Positions 435-58,966 are shown, numbered from the whole stretch's first letter. The stretch: DNA of 61,700 nt, filler included, from 7 parts of 7 records of this genome joined end to end with filler, not necessarily neighbours in it; one strand, 5' to 3'. The notes: generated by a model from the sequence alone, not told the origin. Numbers and translations are program-made.

Positions 435-501
435 TGTCATTACGTGCCCCGACACGGAATCTCTCTCATCCGAGTGATACTGGAACAAGTTCAGCATAAC
501 G
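435..501. repeat. REP-like composite palindrome (copy 1 of the pair flanking pdeM)
   Basis: TGTCATTACGTGCCCCGACACGGAATC..ATCCGAGT..GATACTGGAACAAGTTCAGCATAACG; aligns by eye with 1317-1380. Confidence 0.85.
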
Positions 502-509
502 CGAGAAGG

Positions 510-617
510 TGTCATTTCGAAATGAGGAGGGCAACGACGATTGAGAAATCCCATTCATTCCAAAACACATTGAAAAAAAAGATTTCTCACGCTCCCGCTG
601 GTCGGTTCGAAATGACA
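510..617. repeat. REP-like inverted doublet
   Basis: Outer ends TGTCATTTCGAA / TTCGAAATGACA and inner ends TGAGAAATC / GATTTCTCA are reverse complements; related units at 4877-4952 and 6302-6328. Confidence 0.9.
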
Positions 618-647: not shown

Positions 648-1280
648 ATGAGACAAAATATTCAAATACATAATCAAGAGTTTCAACTGCACCCTTTGGG
701 TGGATTGTTTTGGGAGGAAAAATCACTCTTACTGATCAGTGATGTACACTTGGGCAAGGTATCCCATTTCAGAAAATTTGGAGCTGCGGTACCAAGAAAG
801 GCCATTCACAAAAACTTTCTGCTTTTGGATAAACTCGTTTCGGATTTTCAGCCTTTTCAAATCTGCTTTTTGGGCGATCTGTTCCATTCATCGCTCAACA
901 AAGAATGGGAATTGTTTGAGAATTGGGTAGGCAAAACACCTTCCGAAATCCTTTTGGTGGCAGGCAACCACGACATTATTGCCCCCGAAAAGTTCAAACA
1001 ACTTAAGATTTCAATATTTCCAGAGTTGGTTATTGACTCTTTTTTATTGACCCATCATCCCGAAGAACGTGAGGGCTATTTTACGTTTTGCGGCCATATT
1101 CATCCTTCCATTAAACTCAAAGGTTTTGGAAGGGAACACATCAAATTGCCCTGCTTTTTTAAATCCAACAATCAAATGATTCTCCCAGCTTTCGGTCAAT
1201 TCACGGGCACCCATTCCCTTGACCCTAAAGATTCGGATGAAGTTTTTGCCATTGTTGAGGATAGTATTATTAAGGTTTAG
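648..1280 (+). CDS. pdeM: Ligase-associated DNA damage response metallophosphoesterase/endonuclease PdeM
   Basis: Calcineurin-like motifs SDVHLGK, LGDLFH, GNHD, THHP, GHIHP and LPAFG; follows the Lhr-like helicase. Confidence 0.9.
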   Translation: MRQNIQIHNQEFQLHPLGGLFWEEKSLLLISDVHLGKVSHFRKFGAAVPRKAIHKNFLLLDKLVSDFQPFQICFLGDLFHSSLNKEWELFENWVGKTPSEILLVAGNHDIIAPEKFKQLKISIFPELVIDSFLLTHHPEEREGYFTFCGHIHPSIKLKGFGREHIKLPCFFKSNNQMILPAFGQFTGTHSLDPKDSDEVFAIVEDSIIKV

Positions 1281-1305
1281 ATTCTTCGCTCTCCTCAGAG
1301 TGACA
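1279..1305. repeat. REP-like unit overlapping the pdeM stop codon
   Basis: AGATTCTTCGCTCTCCTCAGAGTGACA, similar to 6271-6297 AGATTCTTCGCGGCGCTCAGAATGACA. Confidence 0.8.
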
Positions 1306-1316
1306 TAAGTAAAGAC

Positions 1317-1380
1317 TGTTATTCCGTGCTTGACACGGAATCGTATCCGAGTGAGACGCTGAAACAAGTTCAGCGTGACG
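1317..1380. repeat. REP-like composite palindrome (copy 2)
   Basis: Hairpin ATTCCGTG-CTTGA-CACGGAAT, then ACGCTGAA-ACAAG-TTCAGCGT ending in GACG; same ATCCGAGT spacer as 435-501. Confidence 0.9.
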
Positions 1381-1432: not shown

Positions 1433-1449
1433 CCGCAAAGTTTTTTGGA

Positions 1450-4400
1450 TTGACCAAAACCCTAATTCCCAAATTATTTGAACAGTCTCCCCAACTCGGG
1501 AAACTGAGGGAGATTATTGCCCAACCTCTCGACTCCGCTCGAAGTGATAGTCAAAAAATAAGCCTTAAAGGGCTTGTAGGTTCATCCCTTTCATTTGTGA
1601 TTTCAGAAACTTTCAAGTCTGCCGAATCACCATTCTTGCTGATTTTGAACGACAAGGAAGAGGCTGCTTATCTTTTGAATGATTTGGAGCAGTTGATTGG
1701 AGAAAAAGATGTGCTTTTTTATCCCGGAAGTTATCGAAGGCCTTATCAAATCGAGGAAACGGACAATGCCAACGTACTTCTGCGTGCCGAGGTATTGAAC
1801 CGCATCAATTCCAGAAAAAAACCGGCGGTAATCGTTACGTATCCCGATGCCCTTTTTGAGAAAGTGGTGACCAGAAAGGAACTGGACAGAAACACCCAAA
1901 AAATTAAATTGGGCGATGAAATCTCGTTGGATTTTTTGAACGAAGTGCTGTTTGAATATCAGTTTAAGCGGGTGGATTTTGTAACCGAACCCGGTGAATT
2001 TTCTGTTCGCGGCGGTATCGTGGATGTTTTCTCCTTCTCGCACGATGAACCTTATCGCATCGAGTTCTTTGGGGATGAAGTGGACAGTATCCGAACTTTT
2101 GATGTGGAAACCCAGCTTTCCACGGACAAGGTGAAGAAAATTACCATTATCCCAAACGTAGAAAATAAGTTTACCGAAGAAATACGGGAAAGCTTCCTAA
2201 AATATATATCCGCCAACACGGTGGTCTTTGCGAAAAACCCTGCGCTGATCTACGATCGCATTGATTCCTTTTTTGAAAAAGCTGAGGAGAGCTTTGCCAA
2301 GTTGAGTCAAGAGATCAAACACGCGAAGCCCAAGGAACTCTTTTTGGATTCAGCTTTGTTGAAAGGGCAGTTGAAGGATTATTTATGTTTTGAGATTGGT
2401 ACTTCGACTCCGCTCAGCAACCAAAATACAGGAGAAATGGTCACTGAGCGAAGTCGAAGTGACATCATTCAATTCAACACCAAACCCCAGCCAGCTTTCA
2501 ACAAAAAGTTTGATTTGCTCATTGAAAATCTTAATGACAATCGGGATGCGGGTTACAGCAACTATATTTTCTGCTCCACCGAGCAACAGGCTAAACGCTT
2601 TCACGACATTTTTAACGAAGTGGATGAAACGGTGCACTACCAGACCATCATTTTTCCGTTGTACCAAGGTTTTGTGGACCAGAACCTAAAGATTGCGTGC
2701 TATACGGACCACCAAATTTTTGAGCGGTACCATAAGTTCCATTTGAAGAATGGCTACGCCAAAAAGCAAGCCATCACGTTGAAGGAACTCAACAAACTGG
2801 AAATCGGCGATTATGTGACCCACATTGATCATGGTATCGGCAAGTTTGGTGGGTTGCAAAAAATTGATGTGGAGGGCAAAAAGCAGGAAGCCATCAAACT
2901 AATTTATGGCGACCGTGATATTCTCTACGTCAGCATCCATTCGCTGCATAAAATTTCCAAATACAACGGCAAGGACGGAGCACCTCCCAAAATATTCAAA
3001 CTGGGTTCCGCAGCTTGGAAAAAACTAAAGCAAAAGACCAAGGCAAGGGTCAAAAAGATTGCTTTCGACCTTATAAAAGTCTATGCCAAACGGCGATTGG
3101 AAAAAGGATTTCAATATGCCCCGGACAGCTATTTACAGTACGAATTGGAAGCCTCTTTCTTATACGAGGATACTCCGGACCAAGAGAAAAGCACTCAGGA
3201 TGTAAAGAAGGATATGGAGAGCGAACGCCCTATGGACCGCTTGATTTGTGGGGATGTTGGTTTTGGGAAAACAGAAGTCGCGATACGGGCTGCGTTTAAA
3301 GCCGTGGACAACGGCAAACAGGTGGCTATTTTAGTTCCCACCACGATTTTGGCTTTTCAGCATCATAGAACATTTTCCGAACGATTGAAAGAAATGCCGG
3401 TAACGGTGGATTACCTCAACCGTTTTAGAACAGCGAAGGAGAAAAGGGAGACCCTAGAGAATTTAGAAAGTGGGAAAGTGGATATCATTATTGGAACGCA
3501 CCAGTTGGTCAACAAAAATGTAAAGTTCAAGGATTTGGGCTTGCTCATTGTGGACGAGGAACAGAAATTCGGGGTTTCCGTAAAAGAAAAACTGCGTTCC
3601 ATCAAAGAAAATGTGGATGTGCTTACACTGACCGCCACACCGATTCCAAGGACGCTACAGTTCAGTTTGATGGCCGCTCGTGACCTTTCCGTCATCAATA
3701 CGCCGCCACCGAACCGGTACCCTATCGAAAGCCACGTGATTCGATTGAATGAGGACATTATCCGTGATGCCGTGTCCTACGAAATCCAACGGGGCGGACA
3801 GGTGTTCTTCATCCATAATCGCATTGAGAACATCAAAGAAGTAGCTGGGATGATTCAGCGTTTGGTGCCCGATGCCAAAATTGGGATTGGACACGGACAA
3901 ATGGAGGGCAAAAAACTGGAAACCTTGATGCTTTCCTTTATGAACGGTGAGTTTGATGTTTTGGTTTCGACCACCATCATTGAAAGTGGTTTGGACGTGA
4001 CCAACGCCAACACCATTTTCATTCACAACGCCAACAATTTCGGTTTGAGCGACCTTCATCAGATGCGCGGACGTGTGGGCCGAAGCAACAAAAAGGCTTT
4101 CTGCTATTTTATCACACCACCTTATGAAGTGATGACCACCGAGGCCCGAAAACGTATCGAAGCCCTCGAACAATTCACAGAGTTGGGCAGTGGTTTCAAC
4201 ATTGCGATGAAGGATTTGGAAATTCGTGGTGCCGGTGACTTGTTGGGAGGAGAGCAGAGTGGATTTATCAACGAGATTGGATTTGAGACCTATCAAAAAA
4301 TACTGTCCGAAGCCATAGAGGAGCTCAAGGAAAACGAGTTCAAGGAATTGTATGATGAAGTTGAGGGCGATAAGGAAAAAGTATATGTAAAAGAGATGCA

Positions 4401-4872
4401 GTTGGACACGGATTTTGAACTGCTCTTCCCCGATGATTACATCAACAATATTACCGAACGCTTAAACCTCTACACCCAATTGAACGATGTAGAGGACGAG
4501 GAAGGCCTACAGAAATTTGAAGCGCAATTGGTGGACCGTTTTGGCGAGTTGCCCGAGCCTGTAGTGGATTTGATGAATTCCGTCCGTGTTAAATGGATCG
4601 CCACTCACATTGGTTTGGAAAAGGTGATCATGAAGAAGGGCAAATTTATCGGTTACTTTATTGCGGACCAGCAATCCAGTTTTTACCAAAGTGCCGTGTT
4701 CACCCAAGTGCTGCAATATGTACAGAGCCATCCCCAACAGGCCAAGCTTAAGGAAAAACAGACCCGAACAGGTTTACGGTTACTGTTGACATTTGACAGA
4801 ATCACTAGTGTGGACAAGGCGTTGAAGGTTTTGGCGCCTTTTACGCCACAAGAACAAAATGTTTCAGCATAG
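1450..4872 (+). CDS. mfd: Transcription-repair coupling factor
   Basis: 1140 aa; UvrB-homology N-terminus, CarD-like RID (GDYVTHIDHGIGKF), GDVGFGKT, DEEQKFG, TATPIPRT, QMRGRVGR and TRG motif DLEIRGAGDLLG. Confidence 0.98.
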   Translation: MTKTLIPKLFEQSPQLGKLREIIAQPLDSARSDSQKISLKGLVGSSLSFVISETFKSAESPFLLILNDKEEAAYLLNDLEQLIGEKDVLFYPGSYRRPYQIEETDNANVLLRAEVLNRINSRKKPAVIVTYPDALFEKVVTRKELDRNTQKIKLGDEISLDFLNEVLFEYQFKRVDFVTEPGEFSVRGGIVDVFSFSHDEPYRIEFFGDEVDSIRTFDVETQLSTDKVKKITIIPNVENKFTEEIRESFLKYISANTVVFAKNPALIYDRIDSFFEKAEESFAKLSQEIKHAKPKELFLDSALLKGQLKDYLCFEIGTSTPLSNQNTGEMVTERSRSDIIQFNTKPQPAFNKKFDLLIENLNDNRDAGYSNYIFCSTEQQAKRFHDIFNEVDETVHYQTIIFPLYQGFVDQNLKIACYTDHQIFERYHKFHLKNGYAKKQAITLKELNKLEIGDYVTHIDHGIGKFGGLQKIDVEGKKQEAIKLIYGDRDILYVSIHSLHKISKYNGKDGAPPKIFKLGSAAWKKLKQKTKARVKKIAFDLIKVYAKRRLEKGFQYAPDSYLQYELEASFLYEDTPDQEKSTQDVKKDMESERPMDRLICGDVGFGKTEVAIRAAFKAVDNGKQVAILVPTTILAFQHHRTFSERLKEMPVTVDYLNRFRTAKEKRETLENLESGKVDIIIGTHQLVNKNVKFKDLGLLIVDEEQKFGVSVKEKLRSIKENVDVLTLTATPIPRTLQFSLMAARDLSVINTPPPNRYPIESHVIRLNEDIIRDAVSYEIQRGGQVFFIHNRIENIKEVAGMIQRLVPDAKIGIGHGQMEGKKLETLMLSFMNGEFDVLVSTTIIESGLDVTNANTIFIHNANNFGLSDLHQMRGRVGRSNKKAFCYFITPPYEVMTTEARKRIEALEQFTELGSGFNIAMKDLEIRGAGDLLGGEQSGFINEIGFETYQKILSEAIEELKENEFKELYDEVEGDKEKVYVKEMQLDTDFELLFPDDYINNITERLNLYTQLNDVEDEEGLQKFEAQLVDRFGELPEPVVDLMNSVRVKWIATHIGLEKVIMKKGKFIGYFIADQQSSFYQSAVFTQVLQYVQSHPQQAKLKEKQTRTGLRLLLTFDRITSVDKALKVLAPFTPQEQNVSA
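1525..1549. repeat. Intragenic REP-like unit in mfd (encodes PLDSARSD)
   Basis: CCTCTCGACTCCGCTCGAAGTGATA; TCGA-CTCCGC-TCGA hairpin sharing the TCGACTCCGCTC core with 2401-2423. Confidence 0.65.
2401..2460. repeat. Intragenic in-frame REP-like doublet in mfd
   Basis: 23-bp inverted arms ACTTCGACTCCGCTCAGCAACCA / TGGTCACTGAGCGAAGTCGAAGT (3 mismatches) with a 14-nt spacer; similar to intergenic units at 4985-5008 and 6344-6367. Confidence 0.85.
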
Positions 4873-4876
4873 GATT

Positions 4877-5033
4877 AGATTTCTCACATCCGTTCGAAAT
4901 GACAAGTAAGCACTCGTAGTCATTTCGACAGAGCGTAGCGACGAGAAATCCCAAGTAGCCAAGATTCCGTGTCATACTTCGACTCATTTCGACTTCGCTC
5001 AATGACCAGCGCTCAGCATCCGCACAGAATGAA
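4877..5033. repeat. REP-like cluster: inverted doublet (4877-4952) plus nested element (4962-5033)
   Basis: GATTTCTC..TTCGAAATGACA / GTCATTTCGA..GAGAAATC doublet, followed by three interleaved palindromic units. Confidence 0.9.
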
Positions 5034-5034
5034 T

Positions 5035-6192
5035 TTAAAAAGCCTCATACACCTGCTTCACAAACTCCCCGATTTTTGAAGGTTCCAGCCAGCGCGTCAC
5101 AATGACCAAACCACTTTTTTGATCCACCACAATAAAGTTGCCTCCAAAACCTGCGGCGTAGAACACATGTTCGGGAACACCATCCCAGTGGCGTCCTCCT
5201 TGTTGGTTCAGCCACCACATATAGCCATAATTCACATTGGGCACAGAAGGCGTAGTGGCTTTTTTGATCCAATCTTCGCTGATGATTTTCTCATTTTCCC
5301 ATATACCATTGTTTAAAAAAAGTGTTCCAAAACGGGCCATATCCTCTGTGGAGATAAAAAGTCCAGCTCCAGAGTGCCCACCACCGGTCACGGATTTCAT
5401 CTGTATCCCATCGACTACGGTCCAAGCATCTTCGTAGCCAAACCAACGCCAAGTTGTGGTCGCCCCGATCTTATCCATCACCTCTTCTTTGAGGACCATG
5501 GGCAGCGGTTTTCTCCACACATGGGTCAACGAATAGGCCAATACGTTTACGCGAACATCGTTGTACTCCATTACCGTACCGGGTTCGTTGAGCTTTCGGA
5601 ATTTCCAATCGTCCAGACCACCTTCACTCGGTGGACGGTCCGCCCAATCCTTACCGCCCCACAATTCCCCTGACCAGTCTGAATTTTGTTGCAATAGGTG
5701 TTCCCAAGTTATTTTGGAGTTGTGCGCACCATCAAAAGTTCCATCCCAAATGTAGTCCCCCACTTTATCCTTGGTATCGTTGATCAAACCTTGGTCTTCG
5801 GCCAGTCCAGCAACAGTGGATAAAAAGCTTTTGGTGACACTGAAAGTCATATCCACACGTTTGGTGTCTCCCCAAGAAGCCAGCAGGTAGCCATTTTTCA
5901 TAATCATACCTGCTGGACCGCCTCGCTTTTTGGTAGGCCCCAGAATTTGATGAAAAGGTTCATGTTTGAAGCCTTCCAATATGGCAATACGCAAATCTCT
6001 GGAACCTGAATATTCATTGGCATTGGCGTATTCTACCGCCTTATCCAAAGCTTCTTGATTCCATTTAAATTGTCCCTTTTCTGCAGCTTTCCACGTTTCG
6101 TAGCGTTGTGGGAAATTGATTTTTTGGGCGTTGACAGTAAAGGTTGTGGTGAACGCAACAAGAAGTGCTGCTGCAACTAGGGTGTTTTTCAT
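5035..6192 (-). CDS. Secreted serine hydrolase, beta-lactamase (class C/NylB-like) family
   Basis: Signal peptide MKNTLVAAALLVA; SxxK motif FSVTKS; MEYND, DMARFG, YGYMWW and AAGFGGN. Start moved to 6192 because the longer ORF runs through repeats. Confidence 0.85.
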   Translation of the reverse strand: MKNTLVAAALLVAFTTTFTVNAQKINFPQRYETWKAAEKGQFKWNQEALDKAVEYANANEYSGSRDLRIAILEGFKHEPFHQILGPTKKRGGPAGMIMKNGYLLASWGDTKRVDMTFSVTKSFLSTVAGLAEDQGLINDTKDKVGDYIWDGTFDGAHNSKITWEHLLQQNSDWSGELWGGKDWADRPPSEGGLDDWKFRKLNEPGTVMEYNDVRVNVLAYSLTHVWRKPLPMVLKEEVMDKIGATTTWRWFGYEDAWTVVDGIQMKSVTGGGHSGAGLFISTEDMARFGTLFLNNGIWENEKIISEDWIKKATTPSVPNVNYGYMWWLNQQGGRHWDGVPEHVFYAAGFGGNFIVVDQKSGLVIVTRWLEPSKIGEFVKQVYEAF

Positions 6193-6270
6193 TTTTGAGG
6201 TTTGGTTTGGACCAGAAAGGTAGTGATTGTTGGGGAATTTAGCCTTTGTCAATTCAAAGGATATTTTTAT

Positions 6271-6393
6271 AGATTCTTCGCGGCGCTCAGAATGACAAAT
6301 CAGATTTCTCACTGCGTTCGAAATGACAATTAGCACTTATGGTCATTTCGACTTCGCTCAATGACCAGCGTTCAGCATCCGTAAAGAATGACA
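6271..6393. repeat. REP-like cluster; 6302-6393 is a shorter direct copy of 4877-5033
   Basis: AGATTTCTCAC..GTTCGAAATGACA..AGCACT..GTCATTTCGACTTCGCTCAATGACCAGCGTTCAGCATCCG..AGAATGACA. Confidence 0.9.
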
Positions 6394-8735: not shown

Positions 8736-8835
8736 NNNNNNNNNNNNNNNNNNNNNNNNNNNNNNNNNNNNNNNNNNNNTTAATTAATTAANNNNNNNNN
8801 NNNNNNNNNNNNNNNNNNNNNNNNNNNNNNNNNNN
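8736..8835. other. Artificial contig linker
   Basis: 44 N + TTAATTAATTAA (six-frame stop) + 44 N; composition shifts across it. Confidence 0.99.
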
Positions 8836-14314: not shown

Positions 14315-14414
14315 NNNNNNNNNNNNNNNNNNNNNNNNNNNNNNNNNNNNNNNNNNNNTTAATTAATTAANNNNNNNNNNNNNNNNNNNNNNNNNNNNNN
14401 NNNNNNNNNNNNNN
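14315..14414. other. Artificial contig linker
   Basis: 44 N + TTAATTAATTAA + 44 N. Confidence 0.99.
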
Positions 14415-17042: not shown

Positions 17043-17504
17043 TTACAAAGAAGGCTCCGGTGTGCGGCGCTTTTCGATGAAGCCCAGCATTATCGAGGTG
17101 AGGATGCAGGCGGTGAACAGGTACAGCCCCCACGCGGGTTCGACGCGGCCCACGCCCATGCCCTTGGACAGGGTGATATAAAGCGCGATCAGAAAGATGT
17201 CGGCCATGGCCAGTTTGCCGATGATTTCAAGCACCGGCAGGCTGCGGCGGTCGAGCAGGTCGAACTGCACCAGCGCCAGCCCCAGCGTTTTGATCAGCGG
17301 TGCAAAGAGCGCAAACAGGGTGACGATCAGGGCCAGAAAGATGTCGGATTTCCACAGCGATTGCAGGCCCGAAAGGATGCTGATTTCGCTGAGACCAAAC
17401 AGCGGCATAAAGCCCGCGCGCAACAGCGGCGCGTACCATGACAGCGGGTACAGCAGGAACAGCGCGAGGTTGAGCCAGCGCAGGTGGTGCCGCCAATTGG
17501 TCAA
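17043..17504 (-). CDS. Paraquat-inducible protein A-like membrane protein (single domain)
   Basis: SILSGLQSLW, GKLAMADIFLIAL, WGLYLF; TTG start overlaps the upstream stop. Confidence 0.75.
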   Translation of the reverse strand: MTNWRHHLRWLNLALFLLYPLSWYAPLLRAGFMPLFGLSEISILSGLQSLWKSDIFLALIVTLFALFAPLIKTLGLALVQFDLLDRRSLPVLEIIGKLAMADIFLIALYITLSKGMGVGRVEPAWGLYLFTACILTSIMLGFIEKRRTPEPSL

Positions 17505-18069: not shown

Positions 18070-18169
18070 NNNNNNNNNNNNNNNNNNNNNNNNNNNNNNN
18101 NNNNNNNNNNNNNTTAATTAATTAANNNNNNNNNNNNNNNNNNNNNNNNNNNNNNNNNNNNNNNNNNNN
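18070..18169. other. Artificial contig linker
   Basis: 44 N + TTAATTAATTAA + 44 N. Confidence 0.99.
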
Positions 18170-19905: not shown

Positions 19906-20011
19906 GCGTTTGGCCGCAAGGCTAATCGCATCCAGTTCCGCGCCAAGAGCGCAGCGCAGATCGATCCCGGACTGCTGCGCTGCGCACCACATCCGTCGGG
20001 CAAGCGCTCCT

Positions 20012-20683
20012 TTAGCCGTCGATACTTTGCGCCAATACGCGGCTGATCACCGTCAGGCTCTCGCCACTTTCCGCCTTCCACGCATTGAACGCGGCCTGCA
20101 CCGCCGCCATCGCCTTTTTCGAGGTCGGCTCCTTGTCGATCACGCCCTCTGCCTCCAGCCGCGCCACCACGGACGGCGACAGCACATAACTTTCCTTGCC
20201 CAGATACCGCAGCGCGTAGGCCCCTGTGGCCCCGCCCAGACGCGAACCGTTCTTTTTCAACCACTCCAACAGCCCGGCGAAATCCTCAGCCGGCCAATCG
20301 CCGATCTTGCGCCCGAAACTGCCCGCCTCGGCGGCGACCTCCTGAATAAAGGCGGCGTTGTGCTGGATCGCCTCGACCTTGGGCGGGCTGCGCACGATGC
20401 GCGGATCGTCCAGCAATTCGTCGAACCAGTCTTCGGACATCACGGCCACACGCCCGACATCAAAGTTGTAGAAGGCCTCTTCGATGCCGACCCACTTGTT
20501 TTCCACAACCTGCCAACTGATCCCGGCCTGAAAAATCCCGCGCGCCATTTGCGCCAGCCAGCGGTTGTCCGGAATGGCGGCAAGGTCATCCGCGCTCAGC
20601 ACCTTGGGCATATCCGCCAGCACCGCGTCCTTACCGCCTTTGCGGTCTGCCGCGATGTTCAGGATCTCTTGATATGTCTGCAT
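20012..20683 (-). CDS. DNA-3-methyladenine glycosylase I family protein
   Basis: IFQAGISWQVVENKW..EAFYNFD..LLDDPRIVR..KVEAIQHNA. Confidence 0.8.
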   Translation of the reverse strand: MQTYQEILNIAADRKGGKDAVLADMPKVLSADDLAAIPDNRWLAQMARGIFQAGISWQVVENKWVGIEEAFYNFDVGRVAVMSEDWFDELLDDPRIVRSPPKVEAIQHNAAFIQEVAAEAGSFGRKIGDWPAEDFAGLLEWLKKNGSRLGGATGAYALRYLGKESYVLSPSVVARLEAEGVIDKEPTSKKAMAAVQAAFNAWKAESGESLTVISRVLAQSIDG

Positions 20684-21615: not shown

Positions 21616-21715
21616 NNNNNNNNNNNNNNNNNNNNNNNNNNNNNNNNNNNNNNNNNNNNTTAATTAATTAANNNNNNNNNNNNNNNNNNNNNNNNNNNNN
21701 NNNNNNNNNNNNNNN
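21616..21715. other. Artificial contig linker
   Basis: 44 N + TTAATTAATTAA + 44 N. Confidence 0.99.
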
Positions 21716-35722: not shown

Positions 35723-35822
35723 NNNNNNNNNNNNNNNNNNNNNNNNNNNNNNNNNNNNNNNNNNNNTTAATTAATTAANNNNNNNNNNNNNNNNNNNNNN
35801 NNNNNNNNNNNNNNNNNNNNNN
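35723..35822. other. Artificial contig linker
   Basis: 44 N + TTAATTAATTAA + 44 N. Confidence 0.99.
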
Positions 35823-37190: not shown

Positions 37191-37478
37191 CGACGCACTC
37201 CCATTATCTGCCGTTTTCGGTTCGCTATTAGCATTTCCCATCCCGCCCCCGATGTCAAAATTCCCCGGGGTTCGAGAGGCAAATTCTGCAATTTTTTCGA
37301 CAATCTCAATGACGGATTTGCGACAGTATTGCCGCAAAAATTACACGAAGAGCCGATTTCGCAACAATAGGTACGATTTAATCCTGACAAATCTTGACTT
37401 CGGGGAGCACGCTGTCCCGGATCCGCCCCTGCCTGCTAATTGACGCTGTCTCTGCCAGTTGCTAAGCGGTTTCGGTTC

Positions 37479-37664
37479 GCTTGAGGTGCTCCGGCAGGTG
37501 TCCGCCCGCCGGAGAAAAGGGAACACGGAACGGTCATTTTTATGAACCGCAGCCGTGGCTGCTCCCGCAACTGTGAGCGCTGAGGTGCCTCTGATGCCAC
37601 TGGGTGCAAGACCCGGGAAGGCGAGACCACCGACGAAGCGCGAGCCAGGAAACCTGCCTCAAGC
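37479..37664 (+). ncRNA. Cobalamin riboswitch
   Basis: P1 GCTTGAGG / CCTCAAGC; AAAAGGGAACACGG; GCTCCCGCAACTGTGA; GCCACTG..GGGAAGG; GAGCCAGGAAACCTGCC; lies upstream of a TonB-dependent receptor. Confidence 0.93.
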
Positions 37665-37803
37665 CGTCACCGACCGGATGCGGGATGCTTCCGGGGCTGT
37701 GGTTCTCGCAGTGGTGGCGATTGTCATCGCTGGCGGGGAGACCGAACTTTGGCGTCTGTCGCTCTCCAGCAAATCAGAAAATGTTGCTCGCTGGAGGAAA
37801 TGC

Positions 37804-39358: not shown

Positions 39359-39458
39359 NNNNNNNNNNNNNNNNNNNNNNNNNNNNNNNNNNNNNNNNNN
39401 NNTTAATTAATTAANNNNNNNNNNNNNNNNNNNNNNNNNNNNNNNNNNNNNNNNNNNN
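39359..39458. other. Artificial contig linker
   Basis: 44 N + TTAATTAATTAA + 44 N. Confidence 0.99.
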
Positions 39459-57541: not shown

Positions 57542-58966
57542 ATGACCCCTGTAATTGCTCTTGTCGGGCGCCCCAACGTGGGCAAATCGACACTGTTTAA
57601 TCAAATGACGCGGTCCCGGGATGCGCTTGTAGCGGATTTCCCCGGCTTAACCCGTGATCGTAAATACGGTGAGGGCAATTACGAAGGGCAGCGCTTTATC
57701 GTGATTGATACCGGTGGCCTGACCGGGGGTGAGGAAGGCCTGGACGCTGAAATGGCCCGCCAGTCCATGCAGGCTGTCGAGGAAGCTGACATTGTCCTGT
57801 TTCTGGTAGATGGCAAGGCCGGCCTCAATGGCGGCGACGAACTGATTGCTGCCCATCTTCGGAAAACCGGCAAGCGGGCGCATCTGGTGGTCAACAAGAC
57901 GGATGGCCAGGACCCCGACATCGCCGCTTCCGATTTCTACGGCCTGGGCTTCGAGTCCACCTATCTGATTGCCGCCTCTCACAACCGGGGCATTCGCTCC
58001 ATGCTGGAAGAGTTGCTGCCGTCCGAGGAAGAGCGTGAAGGACAGGACCGTGCCGATCGTTATCCGGGCATACGCATTGGTATTGTCGGGCGACCGAACG
58101 TGGGCAAGTCAACATTGGTCAACCGCATGCTCGGAGAGGACCGGGTGATCGTCTATGACATGCCCGGCACCACCCGGGATAGCGTTTACATCCCGTTTGA
58201 ACGCATGGATAACCAGTACACACTGATCGATACGGCCGGTGTGCGCCGGCGCAAGAATGTCAGTGAGGTGGTGGAGAAGTTTTCCATCATCAAGACCCTC
58301 CAGGCTATCGACGACGCCCATGTGGTCATCCTGGTTATCGACGCCCGGGAAGGTCTGGTGGACCAGGATCTTCATCTGATTGGCTTTGTTCTGGATGCCG
58401 GCCGTTCCCTGGTGATTGCGGTCAACAAATGGGACGGCATGGACCCGGACGACCGGGCCAAGGTAAAAGAGCAGGTTCAGCGCCGCCTGGACTTTCTTGA
58501 TTATGCTGACAAGCACTACATATCTGCCCTTCACGGCTCCGGTGTGGGCGTCATGTACGATTCGGTTCACGCCTGCTATGAGTCAGCGATGGCCAAGTGG
58601 CCGACCAATCGCCTGACGGCCATCCTCCAGGATGCTACCGCCCAACATCAGCCGCCGCTTGTGCAGGGGCGTCGAATAAAGCTGCGGTACGCCCACCAGG
58701 GTGGGTCCAACCCTCCAGTGATTGTGGTGCATGGAAATCAGACTGACGCGTTGCCAGGGGCTTACAAACGCTATCTGGAGAATACCTTCCGTAAAGTGCT
58801 GAAGGTCAATGGTTCTCCCATTCGCTTCGAGTTCCGTTCCAGTGAAAACCCGTTCGCTAATAAGGTTAGCCGGCTTACGCCGCGTCAGAAGGTCAAACAG
58901 GACAATGACCTGAAGAAAGGGCGGCCGGTACGGAAGAAAGCGCGAATGAAGAGCAAGAAACGCTGA
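57542..58966 (+). CDS. der: Ribosome biogenesis GTPase Der
   Basis: Two GRPNVGKST domains, DTGG/DTAG, NKTD/NKWD. Confidence 0.98.

Follow-up and report, generated by a model that had tools for sequence, protein, structure and literature searches.

How does one short palindromic repeat come to lie intact between the two halves of another, which itself separates the halves of a third? The question is posed by positions 4962-5033 of the 61.7-kb stretch of DNA analysed here (the window), where a 24-nt unit lies within a 23-nt unit within a 25-nt unit. The explanation preferred here, and held with moderate confidence, is a stack of REP-like mini-hairpin repeats in which single units were inserted in loops, followed by block copying and erosion.

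The nested locus and its setting

The window consists of seven contigs joined by six linkers (N runs around TTAATTAATTAA, at 8736-8835, 14315-14414, 18070-18169, 21616-21715, 35723-35822 and 39359-39458) and does not represent one locus. The GC content of the seven contigs, from ~40% to ~60%, suggests an assembly that is mixed or binned. Every repeat unit discussed is held by contig 1 (1-8735, ~43% GC), and motif scans found no paired unit ends in the window's other contigs. Contig 1 encodes a helicase C-terminal fragment, a metallophosphoesterase, Mfd, a beta-lactamase-family protein and a DUF3352 protein. The closest relatives of its Mfd are Flagellimonas, Allomuricauda and Muricauda proteins (97% identity over the part searched), and on these sequence grounds the contig is assigned to a Flagellimonas/Allomuricauda flavobacterium. 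An Rfam gathering scan of the whole window returned only a cobalamin riboswitch (RF00174, 106 bits) at 37467-37675 (+), in a contig other than contig 1, and matched no repeat unit; a permissive Rfam scan of contig 1 gave eukaryotic matches at chance level only. The units are outside every curated RNA family. In another contig, a 54-nt direct repeat (57554-57607 and 58076-58129, 78% identity, 522 nt apart) probably reflects two similar domains within one gene.

The nested locus occupies a 162-nt spacer, towards which mfd (1450-4872, plus strand) and the beta-lactamase-family gene (5035-6336, minus strand) converge. Since repeat units overlap the GTG listed as the start of the latter (6336), translation probably begins farther downstream. 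A spacer between convergent genes fits the usual habitat of REPs, and it is possible that the units act as transcript-end hairpins. Throughout contig 1, units of 24-28 nt each occupy five intergenic non-coding stretches and two in-frame sites in mfd. The layers at the nested locus are these:

4962-4974 (+), left arm of the outer unit (L1), AGATTCCGTGTCA; 12/12 against the left arm of 1316-1343 (-)
4975-4984 (+), left half of the middle unit (L2), TACTTCGACT; matches 2400-2409 inside mfd
4985-5008 (+), intact 24-nt inner unit (L3), CATTTCGACTTCGCTCAATGACCA; identical copy at 6342-6367
5009-5021 (+), right half of the middle unit, GCGCTCAGCATCC; 11/13 against 2410-2422
5022-5033 (+), right arm of the outer unit, GCACAGAATGAA; 9/11 against the right arm of 1316-1343 (-)

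The original prediction of three nested layers is borne out, the sequence being as described. When both strands of contig 1 were searched for an exact prefix and a suffix with at most two mismatches, 15-80 nt apart, 4962-5033 was the sole match for each split layer, while none of 500 dinucleotide shuffles held any split pair for the outer or the middle layer; the nested reading at 4962-5033 is therefore not due to chance. The inner unit also has a complementary (inverted) copy, 92% identical, at 2438-2463.

It had further been claimed that each unit was inserted at the centre of a hairpin, and here the layers differ. The intact outer-type hairpin at 1316-1343 (-), CGATTCCGTGTCAAGCACGGAATAACAG, folds into an 8-bp stem with a 5-nt loop at -8.0 kcal/mol (z -6.2, 0/200 shuffles), and the position of the 47-nt insert is that of this loop and of the 6-nt loop in the second intact copy at 435-462. 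The inner and middle units together thus occupy the 5-nt apical loop of an outer unit that is a true 8-bp hairpin, and the inner unit occupies the core centre of the middle unit. The inner unit with its flanking G forms a 7-bp stem at -4.7 kcal/mol (z -3.7, for the 6341-6367 copy; about -3 to -3.7 for the inner unit in general). The middle unit does not fold alone (-0.4 kcal/mol, z +0.6), so that for this layer the term hairpin centre holds by homology only; the claim stands for the outer loop and recurs independently in Mfd, as described below. At both junction pairs of 4962-5033 there is neither a target-site duplication nor a terminal inverted repeat. The 24-nt insert falls inside the loop triplet, on the complementary strand after its first or second base, the assignment of one base being ambiguous.

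A single selected long hairpin was considered as a reading of the entire stack and dropped: folded over 4958-5036 on either strand with standard DNA parameters, which probably omit special GNA triloops and tandem G.A pairs, the composite is no better than its shuffles (z +1.1 plus, z +0.45 minus). Its tag is degenerate, with TTC before ATTCTGTG.

Unit design, paralogous arrays and known repeat families

The units of contig 1 follow a single plan: between the ends AGATT and AATGACA, two complementary triplets, which vary among units, enclose a core. In many of them this core is TCGAC-NNN-GCTC; on the complementary strand it becomes GAGC-GNA-GTCGA, with a TGTC tag and an AT-first stem ahead of it. 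Examples are AGATTTC...GAAATGACA (580, 4877, 6302), AGATTCT...AGAATGACA (6271) and AGATTCC...GGAATAACA (1316-1343). The stem triplets covary across families (TTC/GAA, TCT/AGA, TCC/GGA), and inner-type stems likewise pair GTCATT with AATGAC at 4984-5008 and 6341-6367 versus GTCACT with AGTGAC at 2438-2464; compensation of this kind favours a selected stem. Closed by C-G, the GNA triplet may be likened to the GCGNAGC mini-hairpins that are described as very stable in the available parts of two reports (PMC13037366, PMC3201870). The other units are listed below, F1 and F2 denoting types of unit.

435-462 (-), second intact outer-type hairpin; 6-nt loop, TGTC tag
510-617, two F1-type units forming a head-to-head doublet; the one at 510-551 is on the minus strand, that at 580-617 on the plus strand
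1279-1305 (+), F2-like unit AGATTCTTCGCTCTCCTCAGAGTGACA
1316-1343 (-), intact outer-type hairpin; 8-bp stem, 5-nt loop
1353-1383 (-), CGTC-tagged hairpin CGTCACGCTGAACTTGTTTCAGCGTCTC; paralogue at 468-501
1524-1552 (+), unit translated as PLDSARSD, in frame in mfd at its N-terminal variable site
2399-2424 (+), unit GTACTTCGACTCCGCTCAGCAACCAA of the doublet in the next line, reference for the middle unit; encodes TSTPLSNQ
2399-2466 (+), in-frame inverted doublet of L2/L3-type units in mfd; encodes TSTPLSNQNTGEMVTERSRSD
4877-4904 (+), F1-type unit AGATTTCTCAC-ATCC-GTTCGAAATGACA in the same spacer as the stack; paired, at its right end, with the left end of the unit that follows
4919-4951 (-), F1-type unit in the opposite orientation; holds the first copy of the direct repeat TCATTTCGAC
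6271-6297 (+), F2-type unit AGATTCTTCGCGGCGCTCAGAATGACA in the paralogous spacer
6302-6328 (+), F1-type unit; paralogue of 4877-4904
6341-6367 (+), second copy of the inner unit; 94% over 49 nt
6368-6392 (+), orphan right halves of the middle and outer units; left halves absent

The reference copy of the middle unit, which had been taken as an intact stand-alone unit, is indeed present at 2399-2424 (+), but lies inside the mfd frame as one arm of an inverted doublet of 23 bp (2399-2466; -21.1 kcal/mol, z -8.1). The proposal that nesting crosses repeat families likewise survives in part. The outer unit belongs to a sister family of the middle and inner units, with which it has the ends AGATT...AATGACA in common; the middle unit, judged by its sequence, is a member of the inner unit's family, and what had appeared as three families at these loci thus amounts to two.

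The paralogous spacer upstream of the beta-lactamase-family gene shows what can become of such a stack. Blocks 4984-5032 and 6343-6391 agree over 49 nt at 94% (3 substitutions), and affine-gap pairwise alignment, used since MAFFT set the gap badly, equates spacer 6298-6392 with 4873-5033 minus 64 nt between the two copies of TCATTTCGAC. It is because these 64 nt are missing between direct repeats that spacer 6298-6392 holds only the inner unit and right halves. The half-stack indicates that the composite travels and decays as a block, and that the layers need not have formed at 4962-5033; the three-layer stack may have reached this position ready-made. A two-unit module is similarly common to spacers 430-505 and 1308-1390. 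As a further observation, the beta-lactamase-family gene is bordered on each side by paralogous repeat arrays (4873-5033, 6298-6392) in direct orientation.

Among known repeats, the nearest are the REPs with CGTC/TGTC tags, which are defined, in the available text of the survey that describes them (Di Nocera et al. 2013, PMC3733652), by an unpaired terminal tag (CGTC, TGTC or CCTC), an 8-9-bp stem starting with A-T/T-A, and a short tail that is mostly CCA, with loops of 4-5 nt and head-to-head dimers, and which occur in Bacteroidetes and Spirochaetes. The outer unit of the window reads on its minus strand TGTC/TGTT-ATTCCGTG-CTTGA-CACGGAAT. TGTC precedes the stem, on the complementary strand, at 435-462, 580-617, 4877-4904, 6271-6297, 6302-6328 and 6381-6392, with CGTC at 1353-1383 and TGTT at 1316-1343. 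The outer unit has an 8-bp stem, AT first, and a loop of 5-6 nt; AT or CA comes first in F1, F2 and L3 units, which, unlike the published repeats, have 5-7-bp stems around the 12-nt core TCGAC-NNN-GCTC and no plain loop. The CCA tail is absent, tails being CT, CG or CC; only L3 ends in ...GACCA, and there CC is within the stem. Compared with the published description, the units appear REP-like, and the outer one fits the CGTC/TGTC architecture well. Unit-in-unit stacking, by contrast, does not figure in the available text of that description (PMC3733652).

REP and REPIN elements in general are short extragenic palindromes, often inverted doublets, on which a single-copy HUH Y1 enzyme acts in trans at ssDNA hairpins, and RAYT subclass 2.6 is found mostly in Bacteroidetes and has atypical secondary structures, as described in the available portions of three papers (PMC3116915, PMC2817692, PMC6006769). 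Inverted doublets exist in contig 1 at 2399-2466 and at 510-551 (-)/580-617 (+). None of the contig 1 units listed has the GTAG foot tag. The apparent mobile entity of the window is a single 24-nt hairpin and not a doublet, and loop nesting, too, sets the window apart from those REPIN descriptions as far as their available text extends (PMC3116915, PMC2817692, PMC6006769). Rickettsia palindromic elements (RPE) resemble the mfd sites in being palindromic repeats lodged in-frame in genes that still function, and the available summary, which equates RPE-4 and RPE-6 with CGTC REPs, describes no layering of the kind seen here (PMC3733652). The features of MITEs (15-30-bp terminal inverted repeats and target-site duplication) are not seen, there being no duplication and the units measuring 24-28 nt. 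RPE-1 is far longer than these units, at about 100-150 nt. Cyanobacterial SDRs offer a likeness of another kind: the SDR1/SDR4 repeats of Nostoc, reportedly described by Elhai et al. in 2008, are said to be predicted hairpins of 21-27 nt with compensatory changes, nested within themselves or each other and thought to be mobile. As so defined, they share with the window and with the 24-nt layers of Mfd the nesting of short units within each other; they differ in phylum and in sequence.

Layered sites in Mfd and copies in other genomes

Whether units enter loops in other lineages can be judged from Mfd orthologues, in which the units are translated. At the linker site (the segment from EIG to IQFNTKPQP), 114 of the first 120 Mfd relatives could be parsed, and fell into length classes of 12, 14-16, 20, 22-24, 29-30, 35-36, 39 and 43 residues with recognisable unit translations. 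At the N-terminal site (1524-1552 in the window), 100 of 137 Mfd proteins were parsed, as follows:

15 aa, 14 proteins: no recognisable unit
19 aa, 61 proteins: about one third with a PLDSAR-type unit (the window's type), the others without a recognisable unit
23 aa, 22 proteins: VTSSxV[ED]K in 19, degenerate in 3
31 aa, 3 proteins: VTSS, then 8 extra residues, then xVEK or xVDK

The 31-aa forms are VTSS+TSAKLSTG+S[VI]EK (P0113, P0109) and VTSS+CHPELVEG+AVDK (P0022). At the linker, P0113 alone has VTSS+PSSDLRTG+SVEKQ, where P0109, P0111, P0114, P0117 and P0107 have VTSS[AG]VEKQ; P0109 is without the linker insert and adjoins P0113 on a tree built after removal of both variable sites. Three two-layer forms, in four proteins, have thus gained exactly 8 residues (24 nt) at the same point of the VTSS|xVEK unit, with three different inner sequences, TSAKLSTG, CHPELVEG and PSSDLRTG, one of them inverted. 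The pattern TSxxLSxx of TSAKLSTG is that of TSTPLSNQ, encoded by the window's unit at 2399-2424, and CHPELVEG, going by its residue pattern, is a unit in the opposite orientation. Resolved only to within a codon at the protein level, the junctions apparently coincide with the 5' edge of the loop codon; the window differs, its insert being inside the loop triplet. Read in this way, the zero-, one- and two-layer intermediates that the original prediction had looked for in the spacer exist in the mfd gene instead, and the Mfd orthologues give independent support for loop insertion.

Insertion in place is not the only process at these sites. Linkers of P0028, P0031 and P0032, and likewise those of P0039 and P0042, are mosaics in which the left part comes from one type and the right part from another, which points to recombination between units. 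Allele states do not follow the tree, the window's type standing beside one-layer alleles, and the nearest tree relatives of P0022 carry the 19-aa form and not the one-layer form; allele exchange therefore shapes these sites as well. Across the 137 relatives, the two sites (1524-1552 and 2399-2466) are hypervariable, with unit-sized steps and mosaics. In-frame units in mfd bring to mind the published finding that genes of DNA repair are enriched in in-frame REPs; the available text of the survey lists REPs in-frame in nucleotide-excision and recombination genes (PMC3733652). As a separate matter, the predicted N-terminal extension of P0075, a Flagellimonas Mfd, starts with MRFRVKHGMT and resembles the translation of an outer-type hairpin that precedes mfd, like the one at 1316-1343 in the window.

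Units of the F1 type are spread far more widely. A scan of genome contigs for two F1 ends with a gap of 4-34 nt matched at least 133 stretches, and the matches listed include Flavobacterium, Mucilaginibacter, Bacteroidales, Clostridia, Chloroflexota, Planctomycetota, Acidobacteriota, delta-proteobacteria and others, with no Flagellimonas among them. The fetched loci hold at least 192 unique instances of the pattern, 81 with a centre of 7-8 nt; among the matches listed, 28 of 54 centres of length 7 read xC-GNA-Gx on the complementary strand, and many fetched loci carry several F1 copies or head-to-head minus/plus pairs 50-70 nt apart. Centre lengths, GNA centres and multiple copies together indicate that the F1 matches are not chance. 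A count of the nested signature (a core with the left half before it and the right half after it) in 1.06 Mb of fetched loci, none from Flagellimonas, found 53 intact cores and 1 nested case, that at 4962-5033, against 0.34 expected, a comparison without power.

A plasmid search with the spacer matched one record, from Treponema, and a unit of a Treponema saccharophilum plasmid (GGTCATTTCGACTACGCTCAATGACCAG) is 1 nt from the inner unit of the window. Record NZ_AP025290.1 (L133) holds at least two copies (~17077-17104 and 20000-20027), each between other hairpins of the same style, and blast against it matched 4 places in the record. In a delta-proteobacterial locus (L024, 10001-10049 (+)), the centre of an F1 unit holds a reversed unit of the TTCGNC..GCTCAG type, a nested case from another phylum. 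A Clostridia MAG (L052) has F1 units with the same left flank and centres of 8 or 32 nt (1443-1493 (+) versus its short copy at minus-strand offset 5473, ~1277-1303 on the plus strand); the additional 24 nt consist of a small hairpin and, after it, a repeated CTTCGG, seemingly a target duplication, which is not seen in the window. L003, 2821-2871 (-), belongs to the same observation. That the 24-nt step is constant in other phyla was considered and rejected, the differences between centres within genomes not being multiples of 24; only L052 fits.

Origin of the stack and its implications

On the preferred reading, that of loop insertion followed by block copying and erosion, the mobile entity would be a single hairpin unit of ~24 nt, copied, with no visible target-site duplication, into a hairpin already present and extruded on ssDNA, at its single-stranded apical loop. 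The most likely candidate agent would be a HUH/Y1 (RAYT-like) enzyme that acts in trans and has its gene elsewhere in the genome, a proposal drawn from the available parts of the REP/RAYT and IS200/IS605 literature (PMC6006769, PMC3116915). Arrays would then have been block-copied and eroded by recombination between short shared cores, which would explain both the half-stack at 6341-6392 and the mosaic Mfd linkers. A search for the transposase gave no RAYT/HUH gene among the 5 ORFs of contig 1, no Y1 transposase beside F1 units in the 101 of 199 neighbouring ORFs covered by a Pfam scan, and 0 matches to a crude HUH+Y regex. That the inserts are whole units, foot to foot, with a constant step and in both orientations, fits a discrete mobile unit better than it fits slippage or crossing-over. 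A stronger version, in which the ~24-nt mini-hairpin, with its TGTC tag, AT-first stem and apical triplet of the GNA type, itself transposes, specific for the apical loops of other hairpins in its superfamily and in either orientation, building fractal stacks and adding 8 residues per hop in Mfd, with one enzyme shared across phyla, may be entertained only tentatively.

Recombination could also have acted alone, with old BIME-like modules block-copied and reshuffled through shared cores and nesting arising as a by-product. Much in the data is consistent with this, including the shared blocks (49 nt at 94%, and the module common to 430-505 and 1308-1390), the 64-nt deletion between direct repeats, the mosaic Mfd linkers and the Mfd allele states that depart from the tree. 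Deletion or crossing-over at direct cores, however, yields chimeras and not an intact unit between the halves of another; further, the three two-layer Mfd forms add 8 residues at the same point with three inner sequences, one inverted, and a first nested copy would in any case need an origin, so that this account is improbable as a full explanation. Slightly less probable still is template switching, in which a polymerase stalled at an extruded hairpin copies a nearby unit and returns, with no transposase required. Junctions that lack a target duplication or terminal inverted repeat suit such a process, as does the failure to find a transposase in contig 1, the 101/199 neighbouring ORFs or the HUH regex scan, and the common cores could act as microhomology; switching through shared cores would nevertheless predict variable core-to-core junctions, whereas the insert is always a whole unit, foot to foot, of a constant 24 nt and in both orientations. 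Assembly error or chance resemblance in a metagenome-assembled contig might be suspected in a window that chains seven contigs of mixed GC and at a locus so rich in repeats. Against it are the 0/500 shuffles with either split match, the reappearance of the stack's right part, with 3 substitutions, at 6343-6391, the independent nested forms in proteins of other assemblies and the shortness of the units relative to typical assembly k-mers, which make it a very remote prospect.

How REP-type repeats spread is understood only in part, and for the CGTC/TGTC superfamily no dedicated transposase was known to the 2013 survey, as far as its available text goes (PMC3733652). The same text already places REPs within palindromes in Anabaena variabilis (GTAG-15), Thermomicrobium roseum (GTAG-23) and Halothiobacillus neapolitanus (CGTC-1), and, these and in-frame REPs in repair genes having been published (PMC3733652), the idea that the mechanism lacks precedent must be given up. 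No literature on layering in Flavobacteriaceae or on this unit family was found by a search outside which most subscription journals and supplements lay. For nesting as such, the cyanobacterial repeats reportedly offer a further precedent. Were block copying and recombination the whole of the matter, the locus would be an ordinary mosaic repeat cluster. If loop insertion is true, the series of alleles without a unit, with a unit and with a nested unit would supply a concrete target rule (the apical loop) together with a defined substrate, and would reveal selfish hairpins that lengthen a conserved repair protein by 8-residue steps with its function unbroken. If the single 24-nt hairpin is what transposes, it would be among the smallest mobile DNAs known. 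On that same reading, the near-identical units in Flavobacteriaceae, in a Treponema plasmid and in many other phyla would imply one widespread enzyme with a structure-defined target.
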